DNA of 64,000 nt from a candidate division WWE3 bacterium (GCA_026396615.1 JAPLWK010000010.1:133916-197915); one strand, 5' to 3'. Shown: positions 42,126 to 58,215, counted from the first letter of the stretch. Notes: a model not told the origin generated them from the letters alone. Numbers and translations: made by a program.

Positions 42126-42386
42126 ATGAATCAACGTCTTAGTTTACCGGTTTCGGTAATTTCTATTTTCGATCATAAGACGCGTTTAGTAAAGCCGTTG
42201 CGGGTTTTATTTGAGGGTAGGGCTTATGAAATCGTAAAAATTGGTTATCACCACACCTACCGAACAGGCCGCGTCCTTTACCATATCTTCTCTGTCGCCA
42301 GCGATAATTTATTCTTTAGATTAAATTTAGATACCGAAAGTCTTTTTTGGACTTTGGAGGAAGTGAGCGATGGAGAATCCAATTAA
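42126..42386 (+). CDS. Hypothetical protein co-transcribed with dinB
   Basis: 86 aa. Overlaps the dinB start by 17 nt. Unknown family. Confidence 0.4.
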   Translation: MNQRLSLPVSVISIFDHKTRLVKPLRVLFEGRAYEIVKIGYHHTYRTGRVLYHIFSVASDNLFFRLNLDTESLFWTLEEVSDGESN

Positions 42387-43616
42387 TTTGCCTTTTAATC
42401 CAAATGATCCCACGATATTACATCTGGATTTAAATTCCTGTTTTGCTTCTATTGAGCAGCAGGCCAACCCTTTATTACGCGGTCGTCCGGTGGCTGTAGC
42501 CGCCTATGTGTCGCCGCGTGGCTGTATCCTCGCCGCTTCTTATGAAGCAAAAAAACTGGGGGTAAAAACCGGAATGCGCGTTCAGGACGGCAAAATGCTC
42601 TGCAAAGATTTAGTGGTACTGCCGCCGGACGCCAATAAATATCGGGCTGTCCATTTAAAGATGCGGCAGCTTTTAAACTCTTACACTAATTTAGTGACCC
42701 CAAAGTCAATCGATGAGTTTGTATTAGATTTGGCCGGATCACCATCTTTAAAGCTGGGAATGGCGGAGACGGCTTTGAATATTAAACGTCGTATTAAAGA
42801 GGAAGTAGGGGATTACTTGCGGGTTTCTGTTGGAATTGCTCCCAATCGGTATTTGGCTAAAGTGGCTTCTTCCTACCAAAAGCCCGACGGTTTAACGGTT
42901 ATAAACAACTCTAACTATGCCGCCATTTACGATTCCCTTAAGCTTACTGATTTATGCGGTATTAAAGAGGCGAATGCGGCCAGACTTAACGAAGGTGGTG
43001 TGTATACCGTCACCCAAATGTATGCAGCTTCCGCGGCGACTCTAAAGTTAGCCTTTCATTCTGTTTGCGGCTACCAGTGGTATTTGCGTCTGCATGGCTA
43101 CGAAATTGATGACGTTCTTTTTGCCCGTAGTAGTTACGGCAACTCTTATGCGCTTCCCGATAAGCGGGACTGTCGCGGGTGCTCCTCAAGTTAGTTGAAA
43201 AGACGGGCTCTCGGATGCGATCTGCCGGTTATAAAGCGCGAGGTGTTCACGTTGGTCTTTTATATAGAGATGGCAGTTATTGGCACCACGGTCAAGTAAC
43301 GCACTCTTTGCTTTTTGATTCTCGCGATATTTACAAGGAAGCTCTTCATATTTTACGGCATTCGCCTTGCGTAAAAGCGGTCCATAATTTAGCGGTATCC
43401 TGTTTTAATCTAGAAAAAGAAACCAATCAGCAATTATCACTAGTTGAAAATTTGGATCGTAAAGAACGGCTGGTCTCAGCGATGGATGCGATTAATAAAC
43501 GCTACGGTAGCTTTGTGATTACTCCGGCTTTGATGCTGGGAACCGAAAAAAACGTTCCCGACCGGGTGGCGTTTGGTGGGATCAAAGAGTTAGAGGAGGT
43601 ATTAATTGATCGTTGA
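42370..43616 (+). pseudogene. dinB: DNA polymerase IV (Y-family) split by a -1 frameshift near 43165-43180
   Basis: ORF 42370-43194 carries palm/fingers/thumb (…ILHLDLNSCFASIEQQ…). ORF 43179-43616 (GTG start) carries the little-finger domain. Together they reach ~415 aa. Confidence 0.65.
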
Positions 43617-43641
43617 GGACGGGGCATGCCCCGTCCTCAAC
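43612..43641. repeat. Perfect 30-bp palindrome GTTGAGGACGGGGCATGCCCCGTCCTCAAC starting at the dinB stop codon
   Basis: Read directly. Followed by a TATAAT -10-like box and the dus start. A near-copy lies at 51806-51838. Confidence 0.6.
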
Positions 43642-43666
43642 CGATATAATGTACAATACAACTTTA

Positions 43667-44617
43667 ATGACTAATTTCTGGCAAAGACTTCCCAAACCTT
43701 TCACAGTTCTCGCCCCTATGGATGGGGTGACTGACGTGGCCTTTCGGGAAGTCTTATTCCGGGCAGCAAGGCCGGACGTTTTCTTTACTGAATTTACCAG
43801 CTCCGAAGGTCTGCTTTCTCGCGGTCGTGAGCGACTGCTGCGTAACTTCGTTTTTAACAAGGCGGAACATCCGATCGTGGCTCAGATCTGGGGCAGTACA
43901 CCGGCCGCCTTTACTGAAGCCGCGCGAACGGTCAAAGATCTAGGCTTTGATGGGGTTGACATCAACATGGGATGTCCAGTGCGGGGCGTAATTGCGCATC
44001 ATAGCTGTTCCTACCTCATCACTGACGAAAAATTAACAGCCGATATCGTTGCGGCGACCAAAGAAGGAGCTGGCGATATGCCAGTTAGCGTTAAAACTAG
44101 AATCGGTTTTAATAAAATTGACACTGAACGCTGGTTTAGCTTTCTGCTTGGTCAGAATTTAGCCGCTATTACGGTGCATGGCCGGGTCGCTTCGCAGCTT
44201 TCTAAATATCCGGCTAATTGGGAAGAAATAGGTAAAGTGGCTAAACTTCGTGACGAGTTAAGTCTCAGCACTATTATAGTGGGTAATGGTGACGTTAAAA
44301 GTTACGCTGATGTGGTCAAGCGGTCAGAAGAGACAGGGGTTGACGGCGTTATGATTGGTAGGGGAGTGTTTGAGAATTTGTGGTGTTTTGAGAAGCCTCT
44401 TGATTCGGTCGAACACACTGAAGGCGAGAAGATCGAAATGTTTAGATATCACATTGCAAATTATCAAGAATATTTTGGAGAGACCCGTGATTTTAATATG
44501 CTCAAGAAATTCACCAAAGTCTATATAAACGGCTTCCCGGGTGCTTCAGAATTAAGGCAAAAACTGATGGAAACTCAATCATTAGCAGAATTAACAGAGA
44601 TTTTAAGGAAAGCTTAA
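43667..44617 (+). CDS. dus: tRNA-dihydrouridine synthase
   Basis: …VLAPMDGVTDVAFRE…, the Dus active-site Cys region (…INMGCPV…) and FMN-binding TIM barrel. Internal ATG of the 43613 track ORF. Confidence 0.7.
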   Translation: MTNFWQRLPKPFTVLAPMDGVTDVAFREVLFRAARPDVFFTEFTSSEGLLSRGRERLLRNFVFNKAEHPIVAQIWGSTPAAFTEAARTVKDLGFDGVDINMGCPVRGVIAHHSCSYLITDEKLTADIVAATKEGAGDMPVSVKTRIGFNKIDTERWFSFLLGQNLAAITVHGRVASQLSKYPANWEEIGKVAKLRDELSLSTIIVGNGDVKSYADVVKRSEETGVDGVMIGRGVFENLWCFEKPLDSVEHTEGEKIEMFRYHIANYQEYFGETRDFNMLKKFTKVYINGFPGASELRQKLMETQSLAELTEILRKA

Positions 44618-44778
44618 TCTTTTATATATACATGAATATAACGTGCGTTTAGTGGTAATGGTCCGTGGTTTGTACAATTTAACAATTTTTGCATAGTTTT
44701 AGCTGTTTATTGCGTAGATTTGGACAATATAGTATAAATATTAAAATATGAAGCTAGAACTTTGGAAATTTGGAAATA

Positions 44779-44934
44779 GTGCTTGATTTCCAGGGGGTAA
44801 TAACTCTTACACCGTCATGGGCGGACGAGTTTTTGACTAAATTAGGAGAACGTTACGGAGACAGAGTCCATCTTATAAACACTAAGAATCCGTCTATTGA
44901 AGCGACTTTAAGCCTATTAAAAAGGCTGGGCTAG
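44779..44934 (+). CDS. Small ORF resembling the C-terminal half of STAS-like/DUF4325 proteins (possible fragment)
   Basis: VLDFQGVITLTPSWADEFLTKLGERYGDRVHLINTKNPSIEATLSLLKRLG. Not in the ORF track. Alternative TTG start at 44770. The family assignment is from memory and tentative. Confidence 0.2.
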   Translation: MLDFQGVITLTPSWADEFLTKLGERYGDRVHLINTKNPSIEATLSLLKRLG

Positions 44935-44970
44935 AATCTTGGTAGTGAGTAGTATATAATATAGACACAT

Positions 44971-45732
44971 ATGAATATAATTGAAGTAACTGATTTAGTT
45001 AAAACTTATAAAAAATCGACTACAAATGCCGTTGATCACATTTCTTTTAACGTCGCGGAAGGGGAGTTCTTTTCTTTTTTGGGCCCTAATGGCGCTGGTA
45101 AAACGACTACAATTTCCATTCTAACCACAATCTTGGCTATGACCTCAGGTTCCGTTAAAATATCCGGTCACGACATCGATAAAGACGCTTCGTTTGTACG
45201 GTCGCAAATCGGAGTGATCTTCCAAAAACCCAGTCTTGACTTGAATTTAACCGGTGAAGAAAACATTCGCTTTCATACGATTCTTTATAAAATGTACTCT
45301 TTTCGTCCTTCGTTTAAGCTAATGCCAAAAGAATATCAGGATAAAGTTTTAGAATTGTCGGAACTGATGGGCTTAAAATCGGAAATATTTAAACCGGTAA
45401 AAACCTTTTCTGGAGGCATGAAGCGAAAACTGGAAATTATGCGGACTTTGATGCATAAGCCAAAAGTATTATTTTTAGACGAGCCTACAAGCGGTCTTGA
45501 CCCTTTGAGTCGTCGCAATCTTTGGGAATATTTAAAGGATGTTCGTAAAAAAGAAAACATGACGATCTTTTTAACTACTCACTATTTAGAAGAAGCGGAG
45601 GACTCTGATCGAGTGGCGATAATTAATCATGGAAAAATTGTTATGAACGACAGTACCAAAAACATTTTGCTCGATAACACACAATCTTTGGAAGATGTGT
45701 ATTTGGATATAATAAAGGAGAATGATGCATGA
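44971..45732 (+). CDS. ABC transporter ATP-binding protein (ABC-2 type)
   Basis: Walker A GPNGAGKTT, signature SGGMKRKL, Walker B LFLDEPT. Confidence 0.8.
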   Translation: MNIIEVTDLVKTYKKSTTNAVDHISFNVAEGEFFSFLGPNGAGKTTTISILTTILAMTSGSVKISGHDIDKDASFVRSQIGVIFQKPSLDLNLTGEENIRFHTILYKMYSFRPSFKLMPKEYQDKVLELSELMGLKSEIFKPVKTFSGGMKRKLEIMRTLMHKPKVLFLDEPTSGLDPLSRRNLWEYLKDVRKKENMTIFLTTHYLEEAEDSDRVAIINHGKIVMNDSTKNILLDNTQSLEDVYLDIIKENDA

Positions 45733-46504
45733 ATTAAGCCCAATTTTAGTAATCGCTTATCGTGATTTAATGAAGTTTCTACGCGATCGGCAACGAATCG
45801 TGTTTTCTTTAGTTTTTCCTTTGGTCTTTATTGCGGTTCTTGGTGGCAGTATTAACTCAAATCTTGCTCAAAACGTTGGTTATAATTATTTAACCTTTAT
45901 TTTCATTGGAGTGATCGCTCAAACTTTGTTCCAGACCACCGCTTCCGGTGTCATCTCACTAATAGAAGATCGGGAAAATGATTTTAGTCAGGAAATTTTC
46001 GTCTCCCCAATTTCTCGCTACTCTATTATCATCGGCAAAATCTTAGGAGAATCACTCGTCGCCATGGTTCAACTCATCGGAATTTTCGCAATCGGTTTTA
46101 TAATTCGAGTACCACTACAGATGTCGCATTTAATACTGCTGATACCGTTTAGCTTATTAGTATGCCTCTTTGGCGGGGCCTTTGGGATTTTAATTTTATC
46201 TAATTTAGGTAGTCAGCGCTCAGCTAATCAGATTTTTCCTTTTATAATGTTCCCGCAATTTTTCCTGGCCGGTGTTTTTACGCCTATTAAAACTTTACCA
46301 ATCTACCTGTTAATTTTGTCACGCATTGCCCCAATGACTTACGCCGTTGACCTCCTGCGCAGCATTTACTATTCAGGGCTCCCGGAAATTAATAAAGTGG
46401 TGTTGCACCCTTTTATTCTTAATTTGGGGGTTATCCTGGCTTTTACAGTTATCTTCATTTCGATCGGTACTTTCTTGTTTGTAAAAAACGAAAAGAATAG
46501 ATAA
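45722..46504 (+). CDS. ABC-2 family permease
   Basis: Six TM helices. Overlaps the ATPase gene by 11 nt. Confidence 0.6.
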   Translation: MMHELSPILVIAYRDLMKFLRDRQRIVFSLVFPLVFIAVLGGSINSNLAQNVGYNYLTFIFIGVIAQTLFQTTASGVISLIEDRENDFSQEIFVSPISRYSIIIGKILGESLVAMVQLIGIFAIGFIIRVPLQMSHLILLIPFSLLVCLFGGAFGILILSNLGSQRSANQIFPFIMFPQFFLAGVFTPIKTLPIYLLILSRIAPMTYAVDLLRSIYYSGLPEINKVVLHPFILNLGVILAFTVIFISIGTFLFVKNEKNR

Positions 46505-46549
46505 TAATCTATCAGCTAAATTTCAGCGTAGTCTCATATATTAAATTAT

Positions 46550-47023
46550 ATGAAAAAAATACTCCTATCTGTCGTCGTCGTCTCCGCCTTTATTTTTTAT
46601 AGCTTAACTCAACAGGGAAACTCCGCGACTGTTCCTGTCATCGCTACTGTTCCTACTACAACACCGCAAGCACCAGTGATGGCCCCGCCAACTACGCCTG
46701 CAGTGATTGCACCACCAGCCAGGCCGCCAATGATGTCTAAATATAAAGATGGCACTTTTATCGGTTCCGTGGCCGATGCTTACTACGGTAATATTCAGGT
46801 GGCAGCAGTAATTAAAAACGGTAAGTTAACCGCGGTCAATTTTTTGCAGTATCCCAGTGATCGTTCCCGCTCGATCGAAATTAATAAACACGCGATGCCG
46901 CTACTATCGCAAGAAGCAATTAGCGCTCAAAGTAATCAGGTTGATGGCGTTTCCGGAGCCTCTGATTCCAGTGCCGCCTTTGTGCAATCCCTTGGCGATG
47001 CATTAGCATCCGCCTTAAATTAA
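46550..47023 (+). CDS. FMN-binding domain protein with flavinylation-type motif
   Basis: Signal peptide, Pro-rich linker, FMN_bind-like core. A D-x-x-SGAS motif (DGVSGASDSS) resembles the ApbE target sequence [S/T]GA[S/T]. Confidence 0.55.
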   Translation: MKKILLSVVVVSAFIFYSLTQQGNSATVPVIATVPTTTPQAPVMAPPTTPAVIAPPARPPMMSKYKDGTFIGSVADAYYGNIQVAAVIKNGKLTAVNFLQYPSDRSRSIEINKHAMPLLSQEAISAQSNQVDGVSGASDSSAAFVQSLGDALASALN

Positions 47024-47026
47024 TTT

Positions 47027-47767
47027 ATGCAGGAAAAACGTGTCATGTGGGACATGCCAATCACTGTTGAAGTCTTGGACACTAGGGTTGGCCTTCACGA
47101 TCTAAATAAAGTTTACGACTATTTTAAATATGTTGACGACACCTTTAGCACATTTAATAAAAATAGTGAGATTGAGCGGATTAATCGCGGAGAATTAAGT
47201 CTGGCCGACGCGTCACGCGATGTCAAAGAAGTTTTAAAACTATGCGACCAAACAAAAGAGGATTCACACGGATATTATGATATCAATCGCAGCGGTCGCC
47301 TAGAACCTTTAGGACTAGTTAAAGGCTGGGCTATATTTAAGGCGTCACAGATTCTTGACGGGCTGGGCTTTACTAATTATTACGTCGAAGCCGGCGGCGA
47401 CATTCAAGTCAAAGGGCCGGGGCATCAATGCGACGGTTGGCATATTGGAATTCGCAATCCGTTTAAGCATCAAGAAATAGTAAAAACTGTTAAATTAATA
47501 GAAGGTGGTGTGGCTACCTCTGGCACGTCGGCTCGCGGTCAACACATCTATAATCCATTTAAACCCGGTCAGCCAATTCTGGAAATCGCTAGCCTAACGG
47601 TCATTGGACCAAATATTTACGAGGCGGATCGAATGGCGACGCCAGCTTTTGCGATGGGCACAGAGGGCATTAATTTTATTGAGGCTCTGCCAGGTCTGGA
47701 AGGCTATTTGATAGATAAAGACGGCCTTGCTACATATACCAGTGGTTTTACTAATTATGTGGTCTAA
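47027..47767 (+). CDS. apbE: FAD:protein FMN transferase (ApbE family)
   Basis: …PLGLVKGWAIFKA… (DLGGIAKGYA-like) and metal/FAD-binding residues. 246 aa. No signal peptide was seen. Confidence 0.65.
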   Translation: MQEKRVMWDMPITVEVLDTRVGLHDLNKVYDYFKYVDDTFSTFNKNSEIERINRGELSLADASRDVKEVLKLCDQTKEDSHGYYDINRSGRLEPLGLVKGWAIFKASQILDGLGFTNYYVEAGGDIQVKGPGHQCDGWHIGIRNPFKHQEIVKTVKLIEGGVATSGTSARGQHIYNPFKPGQPILEIASLTVIGPNIYEADRMATPAFAMGTEGINFIEALPGLEGYLIDKDGLATYTSGFTNYVV

Positions 47768-49244
47768 GTTTTTAAACTTAATCGACAACTTTTTAAACCG
47801 AATTACGATGTACCGTTTGGTACTGTATGTTCTGATCGGACTACTAGCCTCAGCGGTCATATTAGGGGCTCTCGGCGTCGTTCCCTACAACCCAGCAGCT
47901 CTAATTTTATCGACTAGTTTTATTCTCCTCATATCTCTTATTACCAACGACGTTTTTGCCAAAGTTTTTAAAGCAGTCAAAAATCAGGAATCGGTTTATA
48001 TTACCGCTTTAATACTGGCTTTAATCGTGTCTCCTATCACGTCATTTCATGATTTAATCTTTTTATTTTGGGTTTCGGTACTAGCCACGGCCGGAAAATA
48101 TATCCTGGCAATCGGAAAGAAGCATTTATTTAATCCGGCTGCCATCGCCGTCGTCATAACAGCCTTTGGTATTAATCAAAGTGCCAGCTGGTGGGTAGGG
48201 AATACCTTCACGACGCCTTTAGTTATCATCGGCGGCCTGCTACTCACTCGCAAAATTCGACGCGAGAAGATAGTTTATACATTCATTGCCATTGTTGTTG
48301 GGGTGAGTTTACTCTTCGGTTTAGTTAAAGGATCGAATATGCTTACTATGCTAAATACGATTTTATGGCACTCTCCACTATTCTTTTTCGCTTTTGTGAT
48401 GCTCACCGAACCGATTACCAGCCCTGTCAATAACACATTTCAAATGATATTCGCGTTTATAGTTGGCATTTTATTCGTGCCCCAGATTCACGTTGGCAGT
48501 TTTTACTTTACGCCGGAATTAGCTTTGGTCATTGGTAATGTTTTTGCTTACTTCGTGACCCCAAAATATAAATTAGTCTTTAATATCAAAGAAAGAGTAA
48601 AAACGGCCGCCGATACTTTCGATTTCGTCTTTCCACTAACTAAAAAAGTATCTTATCTCCCCGGGCAATATATGGAATGGACTTTGGGATCGAGTCGCAA
48701 CGACAACCGCGGCAATCGTCGCTACTTTACTTTAGCTTCTTCGCCAACCGAAAATAATTTACGATTGGGCGTTAAGTTTTATCAACCAGCCAGTAGTTAT
48801 AAAGAAGCCTTGTTGACGGGATCTAACGCCACTATTGTGGCTTCGCAATTAGCCGGTGACTTCGTATTACCGTCATATAAAAATGAAAAATGCGTTTTTA
48901 TTGCCGGTGGCATTGGCGTCACGCCGTTTCGGAGCATGCTTAAATATTTGATAGACACGAACGATAAACGCGACATTAAAGTAATTTATGCTAATAAAAA
49001 AGCCGAGGACATCGTTTATAAAGATGTGTTTGACGCGGCGAAGGAGACACTTGGCATTGAGACAACTTATACTTTTGGCCATGTCACTACTGAGCTAATT
49101 AAAGAGACAATAAAAGATTACCAGGACAGAGTTTTTTATATTTCCGGGCCGCAATTGATGGTTAAGGCAACTAAAGAGGCTCTTCTCGGACAAGGCGTAA
49201 GTAATCACCATATTAAAACCGACTTCTTTCCCGGCTTTGCATAA
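47757..49244 (+). CDS. Membrane oxidoreductase: NqrB/RnfD-like multi-TM domain fused to ferredoxin-NADP-reductase-like FAD/NAD(P) domain
   Basis: …GKKHLFNPAA… in the TM domain. C-terminal RRYFTLASSP (FAD-binding R-x-Y-S/T) and …GGIGVTPFRSML… (NAD-binding). Start taken as the internal ATG. Confidence 0.5.
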   Translation: MWSKFLNLIDNFLNRITMYRLVLYVLIGLLASAVILGALGVVPYNPAALILSTSFILLISLITNDVFAKVFKAVKNQESVYITALILALIVSPITSFHDLIFLFWVSVLATAGKYILAIGKKHLFNPAAIAVVITAFGINQSASWWVGNTFTTPLVIIGGLLLTRKIRREKIVYTFIAIVVGVSLLFGLVKGSNMLTMLNTILWHSPLFFFAFVMLTEPITSPVNNTFQMIFAFIVGILFVPQIHVGSFYFTPELALVIGNVFAYFVTPKYKLVFNIKERVKTAADTFDFVFPLTKKVSYLPGQYMEWTLGSSRNDNRGNRRYFTLASSPTENNLRLGVKFYQPASSYKEALLTGSNATIVASQLAGDFVLPSYKNEKCVFIAGGIGVTPFRSMLKYLIDTNDKRDIKVIYANKKAEDIVYKDVFDAAKETLGIETTYTFGHVTTELIKETIKDYQDRVFYISGPQLMVKATKEALLGQGVSNHHIKTDFFPGFA

Positions 49245-49270
49245 TTTAAAAAATAAGGCATTATTAAAAG

Positions 49271-50998
49271 GTGCTGGAAAAATTAGGTTCAGAACAGTAT
49301 TTATCGGAAGCCGCGGTGGATGCCTACTATCGTGTCGCTTCCCAGTTCCCTGTAAACATTACGATTGATAGATTATCGTCCGAAAATAAAACAGACTTAG
49401 GGATTATTTTTAGTGCCTGGAAGGAGTCCAAAGATCAAACAGACGAGCTGAGGCTAGGGATTAGCGACAGGGGCAACTATAACGATGAGATTCTCGACGA
49501 ACGTTTTATTCGCCAGGACGAATATTTAGACCGGTTTTTTGGAGGACTCACAAATAAACCTAACCCCAAATTAATTTTAGAAACTTTGCGGGATCCAGAA
49601 ATAACTGCTCGAGAAGTGCTGATTCCGTATTTACTAAATCAAGTTTACGGAGCCTGGGTAACGTCCCCGGAAACTTATTATTACGCGAGTCTTGAGGATC
49701 AGATTTCGCCTATACTAACAGCGGCAGTGCCGTTACTGTTAGAAAATGGTGACCTAGCAACACCACGACTAATTTTAGAGCATTATAAGTCAATTCATGA
49801 CGAGGTTACTCCTCGCGAATTGCTGTTATTGGAGGATCTTCCAGAAACAGATAGGCGGACGCTTTTAGTACACTATATTAATACTTTTGGCTTTATTAAA
49901 GCTGTTGATACTTTGTCTACCGCTCTCAAAAACGAAGATTTACCAGTTGAGTTACGTCAGAATTTAAAAACTCTTTATGACGAGATTGAGGGAGAGCAAG
50001 TGCAGGCGGTCATGGCCAGTCTTGACGAAGTCTATTCGCACGTGGAGTTTAGTAAGTATGCTCTTAATAATAAAGAGTTAACTGACTTTGAGGTCGGTTT
50101 AATCGAGCGGGTTAGTCATCAGAATGATCGGATCGCCGACCTAGGGGCCGGAGCGGGGCGCCATACTTTAGCGCTTTTGCGGGCTGGTTATACTGACGTT
50201 ACCGCTTGCGACACTTTTCCAGATCACTTAAAGCTTATCAAAGAAGAGGCGGCTACCGAGGGTCTTGATGAGGTTAAAGTGGCGGCCATGAGCTGGCACC
50301 AATTAGGCTTTGAGGCGGATAGTTTAGATATGGTTTACTGTTTAGGCCGTTCAGCGCTGCACAATCGCACTGGCTCTGATTGGGCCAGTTTTATGAATGA
50401 AAGTTGGCGGGTTCTTAAAGACGATGGTTATCTTCTTTTAGACGTGCCGGATATGGCCGATGGCGTTTATAACGACAATGAGGCTCATCTACGGGAGCAC
50501 GCTCGTAACTTAGGTCTGGATAGTTCCGAGTCGATGCGGCTTTTTGATGGGCCAGATCAACTTCATAAGTTTAACCGGATGGCTTTAACCGATACTCAAA
50601 TACATGAATACGCCGAACTTTTTGGTTTTACGGTTGAAGCGATGGAGAAGCATCGACTAGGTGATCATGGCGAAATAACTAACGTTTACTACACTTTACA
50701 AAAAGATCCGAATTTTGACCCCGGTAAAATGAATCGCTGGGAGCTACAAGATGCGCTTGCACATATGGGGTTACTTGATAGCGGGGTAGATTACAATCAA
50801 AATATTAAGTCGTGGCGGGGCACTTTGGGGCAAGCGTTAGCCCTTGGTCCCTATACGCTGGATCACGCTAAACCGGAAATGCTCGGGCCGTGTTTGGCGC
50901 ACGTCACTGCTTACGGCACAGAGTTAACTACGGAGTACGCGGGGGCGTATTATACGACCCTGCTTGATCCCATGCCAGGGCAAAGAGGGCACGCATAG
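49271..50998 (+). CDS. Protein with central class I SAM-methyltransferase domain and large unknown N-terminal domain
   Basis: Motif I …IADLGAGAGRHTLALLRAGYTDVTACD… 575 aa. Ends and start are plausible. Confidence 0.5.
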   Translation: MLEKLGSEQYLSEAAVDAYYRVASQFPVNITIDRLSSENKTDLGIIFSAWKESKDQTDELRLGISDRGNYNDEILDERFIRQDEYLDRFFGGLTNKPNPKLILETLRDPEITAREVLIPYLLNQVYGAWVTSPETYYYASLEDQISPILTAAVPLLLENGDLATPRLILEHYKSIHDEVTPRELLLLEDLPETDRRTLLVHYINTFGFIKAVDTLSTALKNEDLPVELRQNLKTLYDEIEGEQVQAVMASLDEVYSHVEFSKYALNNKELTDFEVGLIERVSHQNDRIADLGAGAGRHTLALLRAGYTDVTACDTFPDHLKLIKEEAATEGLDEVKVAAMSWHQLGFEADSLDMVYCLGRSALHNRTGSDWASFMNESWRVLKDDGYLLLDVPDMADGVYNDNEAHLREHARNLGLDSSESMRLFDGPDQLHKFNRMALTDTQIHEYAELFGFTVEAMEKHRLGDHGEITNVYYTLQKDPNFDPGKMNRWELQDALAHMGLLDSGVDYNQNIKSWRGTLGQALALGPYTLDHAKPEMLGPCLAHVTAYGTELTTEYAGAYYTTLLDPMPGQRGHA

Positions 50999-51710
50999 TC
51001 TGGGCGATGAGAGCATTCTGAACTATTATCGCCATTAAATCTTTTTCGGCGTGGAAGTTAATAAAAGCCACTTTATCGCCATAAATATCCACTTCAATTC
51101 CTACTGGAAACTTATCTTTGGGGACGACTCGCGTCTCCCGCTGTTCCGCTTCGTCACGACTGGTATAGGTCTTGGTTTTGGCGTCTTCGGCGACGATGAC
51201 TTTGGCCCAGACCTTGGCTTTTGATCGCTTCACAGCATAAACCTTGGTCAACCAAGCATAAACTTTAGGGTCAACGTCTTCGGTCTGCAGAATAGCCCAA
51301 ATTTCGGCCTGCTCTTTAATAGTATCCTCGTACACCGCTTTAATGCCTTCCAGTCCTTCGTAAATCTTCACCCCAGGCTTATTTTCGGTGGTCTTAAAGG
51401 CGGAGATTAGTTCTGGCAGGTAGGTTTGCAGTGACACCTCACTGTTTTTAGCTTCTTTCAACCGGTTCTCAATGATATCGGCTAGCTTAAAGGGATGCTC
51501 CGGGCGAAAGTGGAGCCGTTTCTTAATCGTTACTTGCGATACCAGGCCCTTTTCTTCAAGGTCATACAGAGTCTTATAAACAATCCCGCGCTTCAGGCCC
51601 GATTTCTTAATCACGTCACCGACGGGGGAGACACCTGATTGTAGGAGAACGGAGTAGAGGAGCGCCTCTTTGTCCCTTAATCCAGATTCTTTAAGTGCTT
51701 TCTCGTACAT
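50928..51710 (-). CDS. TrmB-family transcriptional regulator
   Basis: N-terminal winged HTH (…EALLYSVLLQSGVSPVGDVIKKSGLKRGIVYKTLYDLEEKGLV…) and a C-terminal effector domain. Convergent 70-nt overlap with the upstream gene's end. Confidence 0.55.
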   Translation of the reverse strand: MYEKALKESGLRDKEALLYSVLLQSGVSPVGDVIKKSGLKRGIVYKTLYDLEEKGLVSQVTIKKRLHFRPEHPFKLADIIENRLKEAKNSEVSLQTYLPELISAFKTTENKPGVKIYEGLEGIKAVYEDTIKEQAEIWAILQTEDVDPKVYAWLTKVYAVKRSKAKVWAKVIVAEDAKTKTYTSRDEAEQRETRVVPKDKFPVGIEVDIYGDKVAFINFHAEKDLMAIIVQNALIAQTMRALFALAWDQAGSYNTPPRTP

Positions 51711-51753
51711 ACCAATAATATATTCGATTCCATGTAGAGACGCAATCGGGTTG

Positions 51754-51832
51754 AGGACGACCCATGGGTCGTCCCTACAGATCTATAGGAGGCCTCCTGA
51801 AACACGGTTGTAGGGACGGGGCATGCCCCGTC
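51754..51832. repeat. Cluster of three perfect GC-rich palindromes (20, 12 and 20 bp)
   Basis: GGACGACCCATGGGTCGTCC (51754-51773), AGGAGGCCTCCT (51786-51797) and GGACGGGGCATGCCCCGTCC (51813-51832). The first and third have GTTGAGG-type flanks. Confidence 0.55.
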
Positions 51833-51859
51833 CTCAACCAACATAATTGTCAATACCAC

Positions 51860-51976
51860 TTGACAATACTATAGGGGTATGCTACAATATGATTGTCACA
51901 GTGAGGAACACGGCAAGGGCCCTACCTGCCAGCGCCGTCAAACCCCCTTGACAAATAAGACTATAGGTGCTATGAT
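51860..51976 (+). promoter_or_regulatory. Two tandem consensus sigma70-type promoters (P1 TTGACA-17-TACAAT; P2 TTGACA-17-TATGAT)
   Basis: P1 is 51860-51888, P2 is 51948-51976. Both spacers contain ACTATAGG. A TGTCACAGTGA palindrome sits 5 nt after the P1 -10 box. Confidence 0.5.
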
Positions 51977-51979
51977 GAT

Positions 51980-52985
51980 AGCATGCTGAGAAAGGGTCAA
52001 ATAAGCCCCCCGCTCAGAGCCCTATAAATAGAGAACAAATAGAAACAACAAAAAACAAATAACACAGAACAGTAGCCGAAGCGGTTTTGCCTACAAGCCT
52101 ACCGGCCACGACTGGGTATATCCCAACCGCGGTACTCAAAACTCGCACGTTGTCACCTGATAACACGGCCCCAAGAGAATCTGCTGGAGATTGGCAAATG
52201 ACTTGTCAAAATAACTTGTCCTGAGCTTGTCGAAGGAGTAAGGCTCAAATAAAGAGACAAACTAAGAACCGTATAAATAGAAGTAGTAAACATCAATTTG
52301 TTTACCTAAACCTACCTTAGGTACTTACCAAATAGATTCGTGGGTACTAGAGGAGAGACCGAGAAGGCAATGAGAGAGAAAAGATTACCTACCAATTAAG
52401 TACTCTCTCATTTTCTTCCCCAAACCAATTCGATTAATGATTAATGATTAATGTTTAATGGCAAATGATTAATGCCGATCAGCTTGTTAGCTGACCCCAA
52501 AAAACATACCGTGCAGTTTTTTGGAGTTAGGGAATAACTAGACTTTCAGTCTAGATAAATGTCACAAGTGACATTTAGAAGCAGCACTTTGAGAACTTAA
52601 CGACTAACAAACTTCTTTAAGAAGCGCAACGTGGTTATCAAACTTGGTAGCTAGGTTGCCTTCTTAAAGAACAAGTACTTTGAATCTGCTTAACAGCAGG
52701 CCTATCCATAGGTTTATTAATTGCTGCGAGCCGCCCTAAAGGCGCATAAGCTTCGCGTATGGCAACTGGTAAAGTTTGGAAAAGATACTTTCGGAGAGAA
52801 GACTAGGAGATCGTCCTAAAAACGAGGCTGGTCCAGAAGCGGGGTAACCCAAGGGACTTAGGAGCACAGCTGAATCTGTGACTAGAACTGGAAACTTGAA
52901 CTCGCAAGAGCAAGTAACAGAAGGTTCTTGAAAAATCGAATCCGACAATCTTCCCGACGAGGCTTCGATGTGAAGTATAGGAAGA
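51980..52985 (+). other. ~1 kb ORF-free leader/candidate ncRNA downstream of P1/P2
   Basis: No ORF of 60 aa or more on the plus strand. Dense inverted repeats. Only tiny SD-led peptides (8-9 aa) are possible. Confidence 0.3.
52433..52474. repeat. Six tandem heptads (ATTAATG)n, iteron-like
   Basis: ATTAATG ATTAATG ATTAATG TTTAATG GCAAATG ATTAATG, read directly. Confidence 0.6.
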
Positions 52986-52988
52986 AAA

Positions 52989-53750
52989 ATGAAGCAGTAT
53001 TTTTTCGTTCGTGAGGGTACGGTCGATAAGTTCGGTAAGTTGATTTCCGGTGCTGTCGTCGTTACATACGACGATGGGAATGAGGTCACAGCGGTTACCT
53101 GTGAGGGAAAGTCGGTCTCTCTTAAAAAGACCGATTTAATTCCAGAAGTTGGCTCCGAAAAAGCTTGGAAGTTGGCGGCTGCAGCTCACGTGCAGAAGGT
53201 TGCGGATAACCTCGTTCAAGCCGGATTCCAAGTTGCGAATCTTCGTTGGGTATATGAGCCCAGCGGCAATTCTACCGAAACGAACGCTGACGTTGCGGAA
53301 AACGTGGATTGGATCGGCAACAAGATTGCTACGATTGCTGGGCAAGTCCGCAAACAAGCTCGGGCTGTTTTTGCCTTGCCAATATGGTACCGAACATTTC
53401 AGATGGACATACAACAGTGGCCAGTATTTGACTGCCACGAGACGTGTTTTAATCTGATACCGCCAGACGGTGACGGTAAAGATTGGAAAGTTCTAGCTGA
53501 AGGCGAATCAGTTGATTTGCCTTGTGATCAAGTGTCCGAAGGTCGTTTTTTGAGTGGCACCAGACATATCGAAAATGTGGATGGTTGGTGTGATCGTGCA
53601 CAGAGCAATCACTTTCGGATCATGAAGAACGGCTTGAGTCCCGAGGTTTACGATGCGTGCAATGCGGCGTATGAAGCGTTGAGTAAAAAGGCGCCAATAT
53701 CGGCAGCCCGTAAAGCTCTTCGCGAAATCATGGACGCCCTCGGAAAGTAA
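52989..53750 (+). CDS. Hypothetical protein P1 of the GC-rich module
   Basis: 253 aa. SD GGAAGAAAAA before the ATG. High G+C. No recognisable domain. Confidence 0.5.
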   Translation: MKQYFFVREGTVDKFGKLISGAVVVTYDDGNEVTAVTCEGKSVSLKKTDLIPEVGSEKAWKLAAAAHVQKVADNLVQAGFQVANLRWVYEPSGNSTETNADVAENVDWIGNKIATIAGQVRKQARAVFALPIWYRTFQMDIQQWPVFDCHETCFNLIPPDGDGKDWKVLAEGESVDLPCDQVSEGRFLSGTRHIENVDGWCDRAQSNHFRIMKNGLSPEVYDACNAAYEALSKKAPISAARKALREIMDALGK

Positions 53751-54004
53751 GTCGTTAGTTAATGGTGCTAAATAAGTTTACAAGCAAATTAGTTGTAAAC
53801 GGCACTGAGCCACTCCACTAAGCTCTAAGATTTGTGGAAAGAAACGTTTGTCTCGATCGGGAGGTGATGTGTTTTTGACTTTATTGTCTTTAACATCACT
53901 TCCCGAGTTCGTAAGACTTCATCAAGTAATTGGTGAGGTGCTACGAATTAAATAGATCTGCACTTTCACAAATATTACAAATATCTTTTTCTTCTAGAAA
54001 TTGG

Positions 54005-54050
54005 TTTCGGCCTTTATGGATCTAATAATTTGGGTCTGCAAAGGTCGAAA
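54005..54050 (+). promoter_or_regulatory. Conserved 5'UTR hairpin element upstream of P2
   Basis: TTTCGGCCTT…(26 nt)…AAGGTCGAAA. Ends 26 nt before the ATG. SD AGGAGAG between. Paralogous to 55050-55096. Confidence 0.4.
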
Positions 54051-54075
54051 TCACAGAAAAGTTTAGGAGAGAAAA

Positions 54076-54774
54076 ATGATTACAGTAGAACAAATAAAGT
54101 CCGCTCGTTCAGAACGCGCAGCAAAGGCTGCAGAACTTCGAGCCATGTACGAGTCACGCATTCCGAAGCTCCAGGCTGCCGATTGGCCGGAGAAGGGTTG
54201 GGAATGGAAGCAAGCCAACACATGGGTGTGGCTGCGTAAGGAGTGGGCGCACGGGGATAAGTCTGCCACTTTGCGGGCCTATTTGGCGCCGACCGAGGAC
54301 AAAGATCCGCAGCCGCATTTCTCGCCCCGCGAGGCCGGTTTCGTGGCAAAGTGCTTCACAGTCGAACCGCGGTGGCCTGATTCACCGTTCGGTGGTGAGG
54401 AATGCCGTCAGAAATGGATCGGTGAGCTGGTCGAACGCGATCTGCCAGCCCGGCCGCCTGAGATTTTCGAAAATGACCCGTTCGACGCCGGCGAGGAAGT
54501 TTGGATCGAGGTCTGGGATTCCACGAAAGCGGGTCCGTTCGCTGCTTTCAACGCAGTATGGGGGCCGGAGGCGAAGCAGGCGATCCACGACGCTCAGGAC
54601 AGCCTGTTCGCTCGTGAGCGCGGCAACGTCAACGTATCTGAGCATATCTATGCACACGGTGTTTGCCAGCATCGCCCCGCTTTCGGACCAAACTTCAACG
54701 GTTTGGAGGAGAATTGCCCCAAGGCAGCTCCGATCGTCGAAGAGGAAGTGGTCGAGGAGAACGACGAGGAGTAG
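54076..54774 (+). CDS. Hypothetical protein P2 (acidic C-terminal tail)
   Basis: 232 aa. SD TAGGAGAG. Ends …EEEVVEENDEE. No known domain. Confidence 0.5.
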   Translation: MITVEQIKSARSERAAKAAELRAMYESRIPKLQAADWPEKGWEWKQANTWVWLRKEWAHGDKSATLRAYLAPTEDKDPQPHFSPREAGFVAKCFTVEPRWPDSPFGGEECRQKWIGELVERDLPARPPEIFENDPFDAGEEVWIEVWDSTKAGPFAAFNAVWGPEAKQAIHDAQDSLFARERGNVNVSEHIYAHGVCQHRPAFGPNFNGLEENCPKAAPIVEEEVVEENDEE

Positions 54775-55049
54775 ATATTTAGTTCTAAGAATTGACACGG
54801 CTTGGTGAAATAAAACTTCAATGGCAAATAAGCATTGAGGAAGTGTCAAATTGTGTTAGATCCGTTCCGTTTGTCTCTTTGGTTCAGTAGCAGAAGAAAT
54901 TAGCCACCTGGTGAAATCGCTGCTACTGGACCTAAAGTTTTTGGACTAAATCGGAGTTACTGGATCCGCCAGCCGGCGGATGACAAGTGATTAATGGTTT
55001 AGATCAAAAACTTTAGGAAAGAGAGGCACGTTGAAAATATAAATACTGG

Positions 55050-55096
55050 TTTCGACCTTGATGAGTCTAAATGACTTGGATTTATTAAGGTCGAAA
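55050..55096 (+). promoter_or_regulatory. Conserved 5'UTR hairpin element upstream of P3
   Basis: TTTCGACCTT…(27 nt)…AAGGTCGAAA, a perfect 10-bp inverted repeat. SD AGAGGAG. ATG 24 nt downstream. Confidence 0.4.
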
Positions 55097-55119
55097 TCAG
55101 AAGAATTAAAGAGGAGAAA

Positions 55120-55596
55120 ATGAATACAATCGCCGGTGCTTTCGCTCGGGCCTTTAAAAACCCAGAGCCATACATGTTCGGTACGGAAGAATTCTTTCCG
55201 GTAGGGGATTGGGATGAACCACTCCCGATCGGGAAGATTATGCCGGACATCAAGCGCTTGATTTCATTGTGGCAATTGCCACTGGATCGGGCGTTGTATG
55301 AGACTGGCGAAGGTTTGGCTTTACTAGCAAACCTGGCGAATTTGAGCGCGAAAGAGATCGACCCGTCGTTTTACGACATCAAGTCGACTTTGATCGCGCA
55401 CGCACAGAGACTTAGCGATCATTGCTGGGCGAACGACGGCATCGTCTATTTCGAGACGGTCGTTGGTCAGGTCTCGTTCCATGTTTTCGATGAGGACATG
55501 GAGGTTCTTAACCCCATGCGCCACACCGAAGAGTGGATTGGGTGGTCAACTCAGGAGATCGCTCCCGAGTTGTGTTACGAGTTTTTGGATATTTAG
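55120..55596 (+). CDS. Hypothetical protein P3
   Basis: 158 aa. No known domain. Confidence 0.5.
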   Translation: MNTIAGAFARAFKNPEPYMFGTEEFFPVGDWDEPLPIGKIMPDIKRLISLWQLPLDRALYETGEGLALLANLANLSAKEIDPSFYDIKSTLIAHAQRLSDHCWANDGIVYFETVVGQVSFHVFDEDMEVLNPMRHTEEWIGWSTQEIAPELCYEFLDI

Positions 55597-55612
55597 AAGG
55601 AGGTCCAAGAAC

Positions 55613-56092
55613 ATGAAAGACGCCATGAAGTTGAATATTTGGATCCGCAAGCAGCTTGAGGAGCGTTGCGGAAAGTTCGACGATCGGACGGGGGTGGGTT
55701 TTTCACAATTTGTGTGGCATCCGCTTTCGAATCGGGGGCTCCACGAGCAGTATTTAAAGCCTCGTGGGCTATCCATACAGGCGCCAGCCATGAGCGTTTT
55801 ATGGACAGTGGAGTTCACAGAGCGCAGCGTTCGGTTTACGCCGAAGGTCTATTTAATAGACCGGGACGATTTTTCTCAGCGTTACGCAAAGGCGAATGTT
55901 GAGATTCGGGTGGCTTTGCGGGAGCAATTTAACATTGTCTCCTTCGAACTCGCCACACCCGAACCGATTGTTTTCTTGCCGGGCTCGAGTTTGACCGGTG
56001 GTTCAACCGCTGTGTTAAGATCCGACGCCGTAGCAGAGATTGATCGACAAATTGCTGACCTGGAGGCCTTTAAGAAGGCTACGTTAGGTTAG
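55613..56092 (+). CDS. Hypothetical protein P4
   Basis: Internal ATG of the 55463 track ORF, preceded by GAAGGAGG. 159 aa. Confidence 0.5.
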   Translation: MKDAMKLNIWIRKQLEERCGKFDDRTGVGFSQFVWHPLSNRGLHEQYLKPRGLSIQAPAMSVLWTVEFTERSVRFTPKVYLIDRDDFSQRYAKANVEIRVALREQFNIVSFELATPEPIVFLPGSSLTGGSTAVLRSDAVAEIDRQIADLEAFKKATLG

Positions 56093-56149
56093 CGATCAGC
56101 AGACGGAGCGAGGGCGGGGCGCCAGCTCTGTTTCCTAGGAGGTAATCAA

Positions 56150-56527
56150 ATGAACGTTTACGTTGTATCTCGCGAGACGAATGACCCGATCTTCGGGGAG
56201 GGCCAGTCGTACTACGGAAATAGCTTCGCAGTCGAAGGCAAGGTTTACACCATGCCGGGGACACTCGCGAGGGATTTCCTAAAGCTAGTTAGCGACTTTT
56301 CGCAGCTAGCAAATCCGTTATTAGGGAGGGAACTGGTTACAAAAGAAACCGGCATCTCTCTCGACGAAGAGCCCGAAGACGAATATTGCTGGGAGTTCCT
56401 ACTCTCCAGCATAAGCAACAATAATCCGATCGAAGGCCGCATACGCTACAGCGTATACGATCGGAAGACCAAGGAAACTCACCGCTACCAGACGACGTAT
56501 ACAATTACTCGTCTTAAGCTCGTGTAG
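56150..56527 (+). CDS. Hypothetical protein P5
   Basis: 125 aa. SD TAGGAGG. Confidence 0.5.
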   Translation: MNVYVVSRETNDPIFGEGQSYYGNSFAVEGKVYTMPGTLARDFLKLVSDFSQLANPLLGRELVTKETGISLDEEPEDEYCWEFLLSSISNNNPIEGRIRYSVYDRKTKETHRYQTTYTITRLKLV

Positions 56528-56733
56528 TTTCGTGAAGGGTGCTGTATAAGTTTTAGATCAAATTTAATCTAAAACCGCACCGGAGCCAAGACCACCAATG
56601 CTCTTGAAAAAATTAGGTGGAAAGTTCCCTCCTTCGCTAAACCAGACTTCGCTAAAGCTACGTCTGGCAAAGCTTCGGAGGGTTAAGAGACTCTAATTCG
56701 TTTACTCATAAGAGTCTCTAAATGTCTCTTTAC

Positions 56734-56783
56734 GGGAGGTAGTTTATTTGCAGCAATGCTTATAAATTTTACCTCCCGTTTTT
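56734..56783 (+). terminator. Stem-loop plus T-run terminator; left copy of a 45-bp direct repeat
   Basis: GGGAGGT…(30 nt)…ACCTCCC GTTTTT. The core GTTTATTTGCAGCAATGCTTATAAATTTTACCTCCCGTTTTT recurs at 58237-58280. Confidence 0.5.
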
Positions 56784-56804
56784 CGTTTTCTATAGATTGG
56801 TTGA

Positions 56805-56824
56805 GGGCCGCATATATGCGGCCC
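56805..56824. repeat. Perfect palindrome GGGCCGCATATATGCGGCCC with GTTGAGG / CCTAAGG flanks
   Basis: Same flank architecture as the palindromes at 43612 and 51754. Confidence 0.55.
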
Positions 56825-56908
56825 CTAAGGTTTCTTCGGGATCTACTCGAAGTGGCGGCGTAGGGGATTGATATATCAAGCCTTTAAGGCACATGGCTAT
56901 CTTCAGCC

Positions 56909-56950
56909 TTGACTCCACGACACGTTGTGATATACTGTACATATATGTAC
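56909..56950 (+). promoter_or_regulatory. AbiE promoter (TTGACT-16-TATACT) with the palindrome GTACATATATGTAC overlapping the start codon
   Basis: Read directly. AbiEi antitoxins are known to autoregulate through inverted repeats in their promoter. Confidence 0.4.
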
Positions 56951-57478
56951 AGAATACAAGAACTGATGCTCCAAAATAGACCGTACTATCATACTCAGGA
57001 CTTAGCCGTTATTTGGGGCATTTCCAATAAAAACACTTTATATAAGACTATTAGCCGCTACTTAAAAAATGGCGTTTTGCGGTCGGTTTACAAAGGTTTT
57101 TACAACACGGTTCCTCTAGAGCAACTTGACCCTGTCGAGCTAGGACTGGCCTCTCTGCACACTTTCGCTTACTTAAGCACCGAGAGCGTTCTTGCCGCAG
57201 CTGGCGTCATCAATCAAAACCCCACTGCCATTACCCTGATTTCCTCAGTCTCTAAAAATTTCAAAATTGGTGATAATATTTATAAAGCGCGTCAGCTGAA
57301 GGGTCAAAATCTGTTTATCGACCTTGGTTTGGTAGATAAGAGTGGCTATTTTGTTGCTACTCCAGAGAGAGCAGCGGCGGATTTGCTATATTTTGATCCA
57401 AAATATTTTATCGACAATAAAGAACTGCTTAACTGGTCACAAGTGATCCAGATTAGAAAAGAGGTCTACGGATTATGA
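56945..57478 (+). CDS. AbiEi-family antitoxin/transcriptional regulator (type IV TA)
   Basis: Internal ATG (MYRIQELM…) of the track ORF, which starts at a TTG at 56909. N-terminal wHTH-like AbiEi_4 pattern. Confidence 0.6.
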   Translation: MYRIQELMLQNRPYYHTQDLAVIWGISNKNTLYKTISRYLKNGVLRSVYKGFYNTVPLEQLDPVELGLASLHTFAYLSTESVLAAAGVINQNPTAITLISSVSKNFKIGDNIYKARQLKGQNLFIDLGLVDKSGYFVATPERAAADLLYFDPKYFIDNKELLNWSQVIQIRKEVYGL

Positions 57479-58215
57479 TGCCAATTTCTAAACCAGCTGA
57501 TGCTATCCACAAAGTCTGGCTGTATCGGGTCCTAACCGAGATCCTAGATAACACACTTCTCTCTCAACATCTCTATTTTAAAGGGGGTACATGCGCCTCA
57601 ATGATTGGATATCTCGATCGATTTTCGGTGGATTTGGACTTTGACTTGAAAGATGGAACTGCGAAAGCCGAGCTGCGTACCCAGATTTATAAAGTTGTCA
57701 AAACCTTGGGCTTGTCGATCAAGGATGAGAGTAAGAATGCTTTGCAATTTTTTCTAAAATACGAGGCCCCCACCGACTCTCGAAACACCCTTAAACTCGA
57801 TATAAACGATCTGGTTCCTCAAACCAATGATTATATAGCGAAGTCACTTATGGAGATTAATCGGACAGCTAATTGCCAGACAATCGAAACCATGTTTGCT
57901 AATAAACTGGTCGCTTCTTTGGAGCGTTTCGAGAAAACTCGGAGTGTTGCCGGTAGAGATATTTATGACATACATCATTTCTTTATGTCTGGTTATAAAT
58001 ACAAGCCAGAAATTATAAAGGAGCGGCGCGGCACGTCAGTCATTGATTTTATTAAAAATCTTCTAAGCTTTATTGAGATAGAAATCACGGAGACTGTGAT
58101 CGACCAGGATTTAAATTTATTACTGCCCCCGCTTAAATATAGGCAGTTAAGAAAGACTCTAAAGTCGGAAGTACTCGTCTTCCTGAAAGACGAGCTGACG
58201 CGACTCCAGCCTTAA
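57475..58215 (+). CDS. AbiEii/AbiGii-family nucleotidyltransferase toxin
   Basis: …YFKGGTCASMIGYLDRFSVDLDFDL… (GG…R.S.DlDf NTase motif). 4-nt overlap with the antitoxin gene. Confidence 0.7.
   Translation: MMPISKPADAIHKVWLYRVLTEILDNTLLSQHLYFKGGTCASMIGYLDRFSVDLDFDLKDGTAKAELRTQIYKVVKTLGLSIKDESKNALQFFLKYEAPTDSRNTLKLDINDLVPQTNDYIAKSLMEINRTANCQTIETMFANKLVASLERFEKTRSVAGRDIYDIHHFFMSGYKYKPEIIKERRGTSVIDFIKNLLSFIEIEITETVIDQDLNLLLPPLKYRQLRKTLKSEVLVFLKDELTRLQP

Follow-up and report, generated by a model that had tools for sequence, protein, structure and literature searches.

The present study concerns a small family of hairpins in a 64-kb stretch of DNA (hereafter, the window) from a metagenome-assembled genome (MAG) of a candidate division WWE3 bacterium, which belongs to the Candidate Phyla Radiation (CPR; locus tags NT141_03945 to NT141_03970; contig of 200,826 bp). 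Four GC-rich perfect palindromes of 20-30 nt were observed, all intergenic and all inside about 13 kb of the window. Copy 1 reaches from the stop codon that ends the second half of a frameshifted dinB gene to 25 nt 5' of the likely start of dus (dihydrouridine synthase). Copies 2 and 3 form a doublet between the start codon of trmB (51710, minus strand; a TrmB-family regulator) and two strong promoters of an island of ORFan genes. Copy 4 lies beyond that island and is directly followed by an AbiEi/AbiEii pair (56909-58215; type IV toxin-antitoxin, abortive infection). The repeat units and the sequences attached to them are listed below, with their covariance model (CM) scores.

43612-43641, no strand: copy 1, a 30-nt perfect palindrome, GTTGAGGACGGGGCATGCCCCGTCCTCAAC; CM 40 bits
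43642-43665, plus strand: 3' extension of copy 1, with 17 of 24 bases in common with the extension of copy 3
51749-51779, minus strand: copy 2, left arm of the doublet, GGTTGAGG-ACGACCCATGGGTCGT-CCCTACA; CM 45.3 bits on the minus strand
51780-51808, no strand: doublet spacer of 29 nt, with its own 12-nt palindrome AGGAGGCCTCCT at 51787-51798
51809-51839, plus strand: copy 3, right arm of the doublet, TGTAG-GGACGGGGCATGCCCCGTCC-TCAACC, with the GTAG head on the plus strand; CM 47.4 bits
51840-51888, plus strand: 3' extension of copy 3, in common with copy 1 and leading into the first strong island promoter
56799-56830, minus strand: copy 4, GGTTGAGG-GCCGCATATATGCGGC-CCCTAAGG; CM 34.8 bits on the minus strand
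56856-56891, plus strand: CGTAGGGGATTGATATATCAAGCC, which may be a decayed partner of copy 4; CM 8.5 bits (E about 3), without significance on its own

All four instances reported in an earlier note on this DNA are present, although the GTTGAGG motif that it used as a landmark starts at 43612, 51750, 51807 (GTTGTAGG) and 56800, so that three of its coordinates were one base early. The palindromes are perfect, as had been claimed, with 20-nt cores (arms of 10) in copies 2, 3 and 4 and a full 30 nt in copy 1. The GTTGAGG flank, which had been described as conserved, is indeed found; it is the complement of a TCAAC tail plus the first stem bases, and the unit is better described by a GTAG head and this tail. 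The general plan is thus a GTAG head, a 20-mer of the form GG(A/G)C...G(T/C)CC and a TCAAC tail, which reads (T)GTAG-GGAC...GTCC-TCAAC(C) in copies 2 and 3. On the minus strand, copy 2 is TGTAG-GGACGACCCATGGGTCGTCC-TCAACC, that is, head, 20-nt palindrome and tail, and both of its 10-nt flanks are identical to those of units from Chloroflexota. A strict GTAG head is confined to copies 2 and 3. Copy 4, TTAG-GGGCCGCATATATGCGGCCC-TCAACC on the minus strand, has TTAG in place of GTAG and a different core, with an ATAT centre and a GGGC...GCCC stem, and copy 1 carries a TCAAC-type tail at both ends and no GTAG head (TTGA on both sides). The stop codon of the second dinB open reading frame (ORF) is the TGA within the GTTGAGG of copy 1 (43614-43616).

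Copies 1 and 3 were said to extend into a longer repeat of about 55 bp, and this was largely borne out: an identical 26-mer is followed by the 17 of 24 further 3' bases in common, giving about 50 nt, and a similarity of this degree past the 26-mer was reached by 20 of 200,000 random AT-rich pairs. The 26-nt identity together with about 24 nt of similar flank implies duplication inside the WWE3 genome or a common recent source. In copy 1, the extension includes TATAAT and TACAAT -10-like boxes just 5' of the likely dus start at 43667. The peptide EDGACPV, previously attributed to read-through of the repeat, was found in both minus-strand ORFs concerned; it is such a read-through product, and the ORFs are spurious.

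Copies 2 and 3 constitute an inverted pair that had gone unnoticed in the earlier note, with 31-nt arms (81% complementary) separated by the 29-nt spacer. The region 51749-51839 can fold as two hairpins or as one long hairpin, and the latter is the most stable fold whether the strand is taken as DNA (free energy, dG, -24.6 kcal/mol; z -4.3) or as RNA. Two inverted repetitive extragenic palindromic (REP) units with a short linker, foldable as a single hairpin, are therefore found here, as in REP doublets forming hairpins (REPINs) and bacterial interspersed mosaic elements (BIMEs). Among GTAG-REP dimers, the GTAG termini stand inside (TT) or outside (HH), most dimers being HH, and the spacers measure 20-100 bp, some with small stem-loops (Di Nocera, De Gregorio and Rocco 2013; PMC3733652). 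The heads of the present doublet point inward, making it a TT-type dimer, and, unlike in REPINs and BIMEs, it is the one clear doublet in the window, not a repeated unit, and no evidence of replication as a unit was observed. The REPINs of Bertels and Rainey are reportedly HH. The doublet also resembles miniature inverted-repeat transposable elements with promoter activity (Correia/NEMIS) in being a 91-bp element with 31-bp inverted ends directly 5' of a strong promoter; in contrast to these, no target-site duplication was seen by eye, the ends are themselves self-complementary REP units, and a single copy of the composite was seen.

A second doublet, at 56797-56891, was also considered. The copy-4 region is collinear with the first doublet (GGTTGAGG, palindrome, CCCTA, a spacer with a small hairpin, GTAGGG, a weak palindrome and the TTGAC of a -35 box), and the segment 56856-56891 is placed as copy 3 is in the first doublet and is then followed by the promoter of abiEi/abiEii (56909-56936). 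The gapless alignment of the two regions reached 43% identity, the best plus-strand match in the window, with background alignments nearly equal, and, given this identity control and the CM score of 8.5 bits, the claim of a second doublet was scaled down. The segment is, from its sequence, a possible decayed partner of copy 4.

In a perfect-stem scan (arms of at least 8 bp, loops of at most 6 nt), the four copies were the longest GC-rich palindromes in the 64 kb, whose sequence, block-shuffled 30 times, yielded longest arms of 8-12. Folded singly as DNA, copies 1-4 gave z-scores of -7.2, -2.1, -4.5 and -4.7, with dG values spanning -8.6 to -17.2 kcal/mol (copy 1, -17.2; copy 4, -10.9); none of 200 shuffles folded as well for three of the copies, and 7 did for copy 2. 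The GTTGAGG heptamer alone is not enriched (8 observed versus 6.2 expected in the window), and the non-random feature is therefore the flank and the palindrome together. Across 18 units from the window and from the loci described below, 6 of 8 stem pairs vary on both sides and no cell is unpaired, a result that is partly circular because this set was selected for pairing, so that a search on the flanks alone (tag, any 20 nt, TCAA) is the fairer control. This search was bimodal, with 0 of 8 mismatched pairs in family members and 5-8 of 8 in chance matches. Both results agree with the earlier proposal that the family keeps structure rather than sequence. No further significant copies were detected in the window by blastn-short, nhmmer or the CM with filters off. 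Also, Rfam returned tRNAs alone at gathering scores over the window, and the segment 51600-57000 had no match at E <= 1.

Relatives of the hairpins were found in other genomes. Three of the four copies fit the pattern GTTGAGGACGNNNCATGNNNCGTCC; when each species was represented by one genome, a scan with this pattern matched at 8 places, 7 of them in Chloroflexota MAGs (3 belonging to Ca. Flexifilum breve and the others to Anaerolineae or to unclassified Chloroflexota). The eighth, in a Nocardioides contig, has a mismatched stem and looks like chance. Six of the 8 matches read GTTGAGGACGAGGCATGCCTCGTCCCTAC, which is copy 2 of the window with three stem pairs swapped compensatingly, and the unit common to the window and the Chloroflexota MAGs is GTTGAGGACG-NNN-CATG-NNN-CGTCCCTACA. 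Thus the Anaerolineae and Ca. Flexifilum breve units, GTAG-GGACGAGGCATGCCTCGTCC-TCAAC, share the head, the first five and last five stem bases, the CATG centre and the tail with the window, and three stem pairs alone differ. The 8-kb Chloroflexota loci are rich in additional units of the GTAG-GG(A/G)C-palindrome form; among them are a doublet with its heads outward and, in one locus (L005), a symmetric TTGAGG...CCTCAA variant like copy 1. Over the eight scan loci (64 kb in total, with 56 kb in 7 loci from Chloroflexota), the CM gave 37 matches, which fall at about 20 distinct sites, a density that is biased upward because the loci were chosen for holding one copy. In the Chloroflexota loci, GC is about 60% and each 8 kb carries many copies, whereas GC is 42% in the window, with four copies over its 64 kb. 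The same pattern had 0 matches in a scan of viral contigs. In addition, the exact 22-mer of copies 1 and 3 occurs in one contig of the JGI metagenome collection (2 kb, low-GC), which looks Bacteroidota-like from its genes; there, a GTAG-type hairpin adjoins a hairpin of a second, CGTC-tagged type.

The window hairpins and those of the Chloroflexota MAGs are one family by sequence, and we consider it likely that the former are GTAG-tagged REP-type elements of a family shared with Chloroflexota. The set in the window consists of two singletons and an inverted doublet of REPIN/BIME-like form; the repeat is of an ordinary kind, and it is the host that is unusual. The REP/BIME-like nature suggested in the earlier note is supported by the GTAG head, the perfect GC-rich palindrome with its covarying stem, the inverted doublet, the intergenic position and the near-identity to Chloroflexota units. 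The palindromes, at 20-30 nt and -8.6 to -17.2 kcal/mol, fall within the 20-50 nt of REP stem-loops, their stems show the compensating changes of REPs in a set that was selected for pairing, and all copies lie between ORFs, the dinB stop codon at copy 1 being the sole overlap with coding sequence. GTAG repeats have already been reported in Chloroflexi, and in GTAG-REP families the REP termini supply stop codons (PMC3733652), as one copy does here; moreover, one REP group (the group-3 type) consists of short, perfect palindromes (Corneloup et al. 2021; PMC8266576). The window copies thus share with GTAG-tagged REPs the head (strictly GTAG in two of the four) beside a GC-rich perfect palindrome, the compensating stem changes, the occurrence as singletons and inverted dimers and the intergenic position near gene ends. 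They differ in being few and clustered in this part of the genome, in the lack of a RAYT (REP-associated tyrosine transposase) in 64 kb, in the CPR host, in one headless and one TTAG copy, and in having no fixed loop sequence, because the centre is self-complementary (CATG or ATAT). A second hairpin family with a doublet in the window, and the occurrence of both types side by side in the Bacteroidota-like contig, were also counted for the REP interpretation.

By analogy with REP/RAYT systems, we propose that the units would be recognized as folded single-stranded DNA by an HUH/Y1 transposase (TnpA-REP, or RAYT), which would read the GTAG head and the stem and would cut and rejoin nearby, so that the repeats spread and are maintained. 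The RAYTs that use short perfect palindromes like the window copies would be those of the group-3 type. The family is probably low-copy in this CPR genome and was most likely acquired from, or is shared with, Chloroflexota-like organisms, and its hairpins might persist in the variable region 5' of trmB, where insertions would be tolerated. An effect on expression, such as protection of the mRNA 3' end after dinB or a topological or insulating role 5' of the three strong promoters, would be secondary and is unproven.

Several observations weigh against this interpretation. Classical REP families are high-copy and genome-wide. Here, just four sure copies are present, all in 13 kb and none in the other 50 kb of the window; families of 20-100 units or fewer are, however, known (PMC3733652). 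With the E. coli RayT as query, tblastn returned nothing in the 64-kb window or in any 8-kb Chloroflexota locus, and no Y1_Tnp was revealed when about 60 window ORFs were compared with Pfam. With copy 1 lacking the GTAG head and copy 4 reading TTAG, at most two copies would be cleavable by E. coli rules. No CPR genome was matched in the species-representative scan, and 34 kb from two WWE3 relatives (70% TrmB identity) contained no GTAG-family copy. The extragenic position is established for the window copies, and the Chloroflexota loci, at 60% GC, have many long open frames. Finally, the partial circularity of the covariation test belongs to the same account.

The island between the doublet and copy 4 needs to be described before the alternatives are weighed. 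Its features are as follows.

51860 (start), plus strand: island promoter 1, TTGACA-17-TACAAT, sigma-70-type, 11/12, TG-extended
51948-51976, plus strand: island promoter 2, TTGACA-17-TATGAT, 11/12 with TG, near-identical to promoter 1
51860-56795, plus strand: island of about 5 kb, bracketed by the doublet and copy 4, with a leader of about 1.1 kb and five ORFan genes
52989-53750, 54076-54774, 55120-55596, 55613-56092 and 56150-56527, plus strand: ORFs of the five island genes
56732-56789, plus strand: island terminator, a stem-loop (RNA dG -25.1 kcal/mol, z -7.4) and then UUUUUCGUUUU, 10 nt 5' of copy 4

The two island promoters are the best promoter matches in 15 kb, and the abiE promoter (56909-56936, TTGACT-16-TATACT) is the third-best of the region; an 8-bp inverted repeat, ATTGTCAA-N6-TTGACAAT, overlaps the -35 box of island promoter 1. 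The GC content at third codon positions (GC3) is 0.49 in the first island gene and 0.63-0.65 in three others, compared with about 0.31-0.46 in host genes; for 55613-56092, the value was taken from the longer ORF 55463-56092 (0.58). At least four of the five genes have an AGGAG Shine-Dalgarno site ahead of them, which sets them apart from most host genes. The five genes had no match in Pfam, PHROGs, PADLOC or NCBIfam, and the island DNA had no phage or plasmid match and no viral relatives. Homology searches of the island proteins against billions of proteins returned almost nothing, with the query itself alone for two of them, and no Chloroflexota homologue was found for any island gene. One relative was found, 78% identical (74% at the nucleotide level) with the same gene order, on a 1.8-kb Logan contig (SRR22388067) without flanks, and a contig from SRR20698641 encodes a protein identical to the 158-aa island protein.

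The earlier view that the hairpins mark module boundaries holds in part: the doublet and copy 4 do bracket this 5-kb, higher-GC island, but there are three loci in all, and copy 1 merely lies between dinB and dus. In the two WWE3 relatives, whose TrmB is 70% identical, the methyltransferase-like gene convergent with trmB is kept, and the upstream side differs each time. The region upstream of trmB is therefore variable, with no empty site definable because each relative has a different upstream side, and it is a defence-type locus, since the abiE pair directly follows copy 4.

The main rival is passive import, in which REPs of a Chloroflexota-like organism would have arrived with transferred DNA, for example the 5-kb island, and would be inert scars in the present genome; it holds this place because the copies are few and clustered, no RAYT is present in 64 kb and a strict GTAG head is found in two copies alone. 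The compositionally foreign genes of the bracketed island (GC3 0.63-0.65 in three genes versus about 0.31-0.46 in the host), their ORFan status and the absence of the unit from the two WWE3 relatives (34 kb) and from every CPR representative are consistent with this scenario, as are the clustering in 13 kb and the window without a RAYT. However, copy 1 stands 8 kb away among host-like genes (dinB, dus), with a host-like ABC transporter and other genes in between, and its 26-nt identity and similar flank with copy 3 point to duplication after arrival. Moreover, the hairpins are outside the promoter-to-terminator unit of the island, and none of the island genes has a Chloroflexota homologue among those found. 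We consider passive import unlikely, though less so than the alternatives that follow. The same bracketing could suggest recombination sites of the att, attC or dif type, with the island, and perhaps other cassettes, inserted by a site-specific recombinase: the doublet and copy-4 regions are direct and collinear around the island (GGTTGAGG...CCCTA...GTAGGG...TTGAC), GTTGAGG matches the integron core GTTRRRY at 6 of 7 positions by eye, and a large serine recombinase is encoded at 38204-39949. As in integron attC sites, a palindrome is bounded by a GTT-type heptamer and its complement and adjoins genes of unknown function. The polarity, however, is reversed (attC, 5'-RYYYAAC...GTTRRRY-3'; here, 5'-GTTGAGG...CCTCAAC-3'), the palindrome is perfect without extrahelical bases, and the island has its own promoters and terminator. 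The island contains no integrase, the serine recombinase is part of a separate element in mgsA, and the flanks, at 43% identity, barely exceed the best background alignments, while in Chloroflexota the hairpins are dense in loci without an island context. Neither a tyrosine-recombinase-type integrase (IntI) among the scanned window ORFs nor an array of promoterless cassettes was observed. We therefore regard recombination sites as very improbable.

A role as functional RNA hairpins, that is, terminators lacking a U-tract, 3'-end stabilizers or insulators, would fit the position of copy 1 at the dinB stop codon and ahead of the dus -10 box, that of copy 4 between the island and the abiE promoter, and the high stability of the RNA hairpins (copy 1, -28.1 kcal/mol). 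REPs elsewhere are known to stabilize upstream mRNA (summarized in PMC8266576). Copies 1 and 4 also resemble Rho-independent terminators in being stable GC-rich stem-loops 3' of a gene. Nevertheless, the doublet has the trmB start (51710, minus strand) on one side and the island promoters (51860, plus strand) on the other, a place with nothing to terminate, the island is already closed by a canonical terminator 10 nt 5' of copy 4, and the window's other convergent and tandem gene ends are without such a hairpin. As previously noted, no U-tract follows any copy, and a terminator scan called none of them. The suggestion that the hairpins are factor-independent terminators thus fails on the doublet between divergent promoters, on the true terminator at 56732-56789 ahead of copy 4 and on the missing U-tract, and functional RNA in the wider sense is an improbable primary explanation. 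Finally, the palindromes might sit at mis-joins of WWE3 and other DNA in a chimeric MAG contig, considering that the composition jumps at the island, that palindromes and short repeats can confuse assemblers and that no independent contig spanning a junction was found. Against such an artefact, host-like sequence resumes on both sides of the island, copy 1 lies in unbroken host context and the shared repeat measures just 26 nt. Furthermore, the island interior and uvrB were assembled independently, in SRR20698641 and SRR20698644 (adjacent accessions), with identical proteins, and we attach the slightest probability of all to an assembly artefact.

If the hairpins are GTAG-tagged REPs, a CPR lineage joins the hosts of this type, and one REP type is shared nearly base for base by a CPR bacterium, Chloroflexota and a Bacteroidota-like contig. 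The usual view is that a REP family and the transposase resident with it co-evolve inside a single genus, and such families are mostly lineage-specific. The occurrence of one type across phyla would therefore be mildly unexpected and would bear on how REPs spread. GTAG REPs in Chloroflexi are already known; what is chiefly curious is that a CPR genome has a REP of the Chloroflexota type, and no description of REPs in CPR/Patescibacteria was found in the literature searched. The hairpins could then mark the passage of genes between an ultra-small CPR cell and the cells around it or its host. A bolder version, in which an Anaerolineae-type REP family crossed phyla, perhaps with its transposase, through a physical episymbiont-host or a shared-mobilome link between WWE3 and filamentous Chloroflexota, and in which copies 3 and 4 would be RAYT-movable composite ends of the island, seems to us distinctly doubtful. 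In practical terms, the hairpins yield spurious ORFs such as those with EDGACPV and flag a variable region with an ORFan island and an AbiE defence pair.

The second hairpin family in the window is tagged CGTC or TGTC and has the form GTCATTCCGG-loop-CCGGAATCC. Its copies are as follows.

12510-12539: CGTC/TGTC copy 1
12582-12610: CGTC/TGTC copy 2
30290-30315: CGTC/TGTC copy 3

Copies 1 and 2 of this family are inverted relative to each other and make up a doublet between lexA (11889-12503) and uvrB (12620), which folds as one long hairpin (DNA dG -28.3 kcal/mol, z -7.6), and the third is found just 5' of mgsA (30328). A CGTC-type unit in a metagenome contig (L010) shows a compensating G/C swap and adjoins a GTAG-type hairpin. 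The genes beside the doublet belong to a DNA-repair cluster at 11889-21264, consisting of lexA, uvrB, a small ORF, uvrA, a transglutaminase-like gene and uvrC. That both hairpin families abut SOS-type genes (including dinB) is probably a coincidence. The mgsA gene is complete at 30328-31476, and its C-terminal 144 residues recur with 75% identity at 40096-40539; the low-GC, AT-skewed DNA between the two ends in the large serine recombinase. Such an arrangement bears the mark of an integrated element, roughly 8-9 kb long, by which the 3' end of mgsA was replaced.

Several minor features of the island were also observed. The segment 51890-52988, about 1.1 kb 3' of the two strong promoters, contains no ORF of more than 50 codons, shows significant RNA structure (z-scores of -3.5 and -4.8), has internal repeats about 249 nt apart and a GATTAAT tandem run (52433-52479), and had no Rfam match; a long structured leader and a non-coding RNA are both possible. 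A hairpin of about 60 nt (TGGTTTCGRCCTT...AAGGTCGAAATCA) occurs at 53995-54053 and 55040-55099 (77% identical), directly 5' of the ribosome-binding sites of island genes 2 and 3, and the gene-2 copy is also found in the relative on the SRR22388067 contig (L013), making a regulatory or processing element of the 5' untranslated region possible.

The dinB gene is represented by two overlapping ORFs (42370-43194 and 43179-43616), reflecting a frameshift, a pseudogene or a sequencing error, and is preceded by a leaderless 86-aa ORF (42126-42386) with a TTGACA-17-TAATAT promoter. The use of a Shine-Dalgarno site was considered as a sign of a foreign dinB and was dropped, dinB being an internal operon gene behind this leaderless ORF. 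Convergent genes in the window often overlap and are without a terminator. Moreover, most host genes have no Shine-Dalgarno site, and in many of them a -10-like box is found 6-13 nt 5' of the start codon, suggesting that leaderless or very short-leader mRNAs are widespread in this WWE3 genome.

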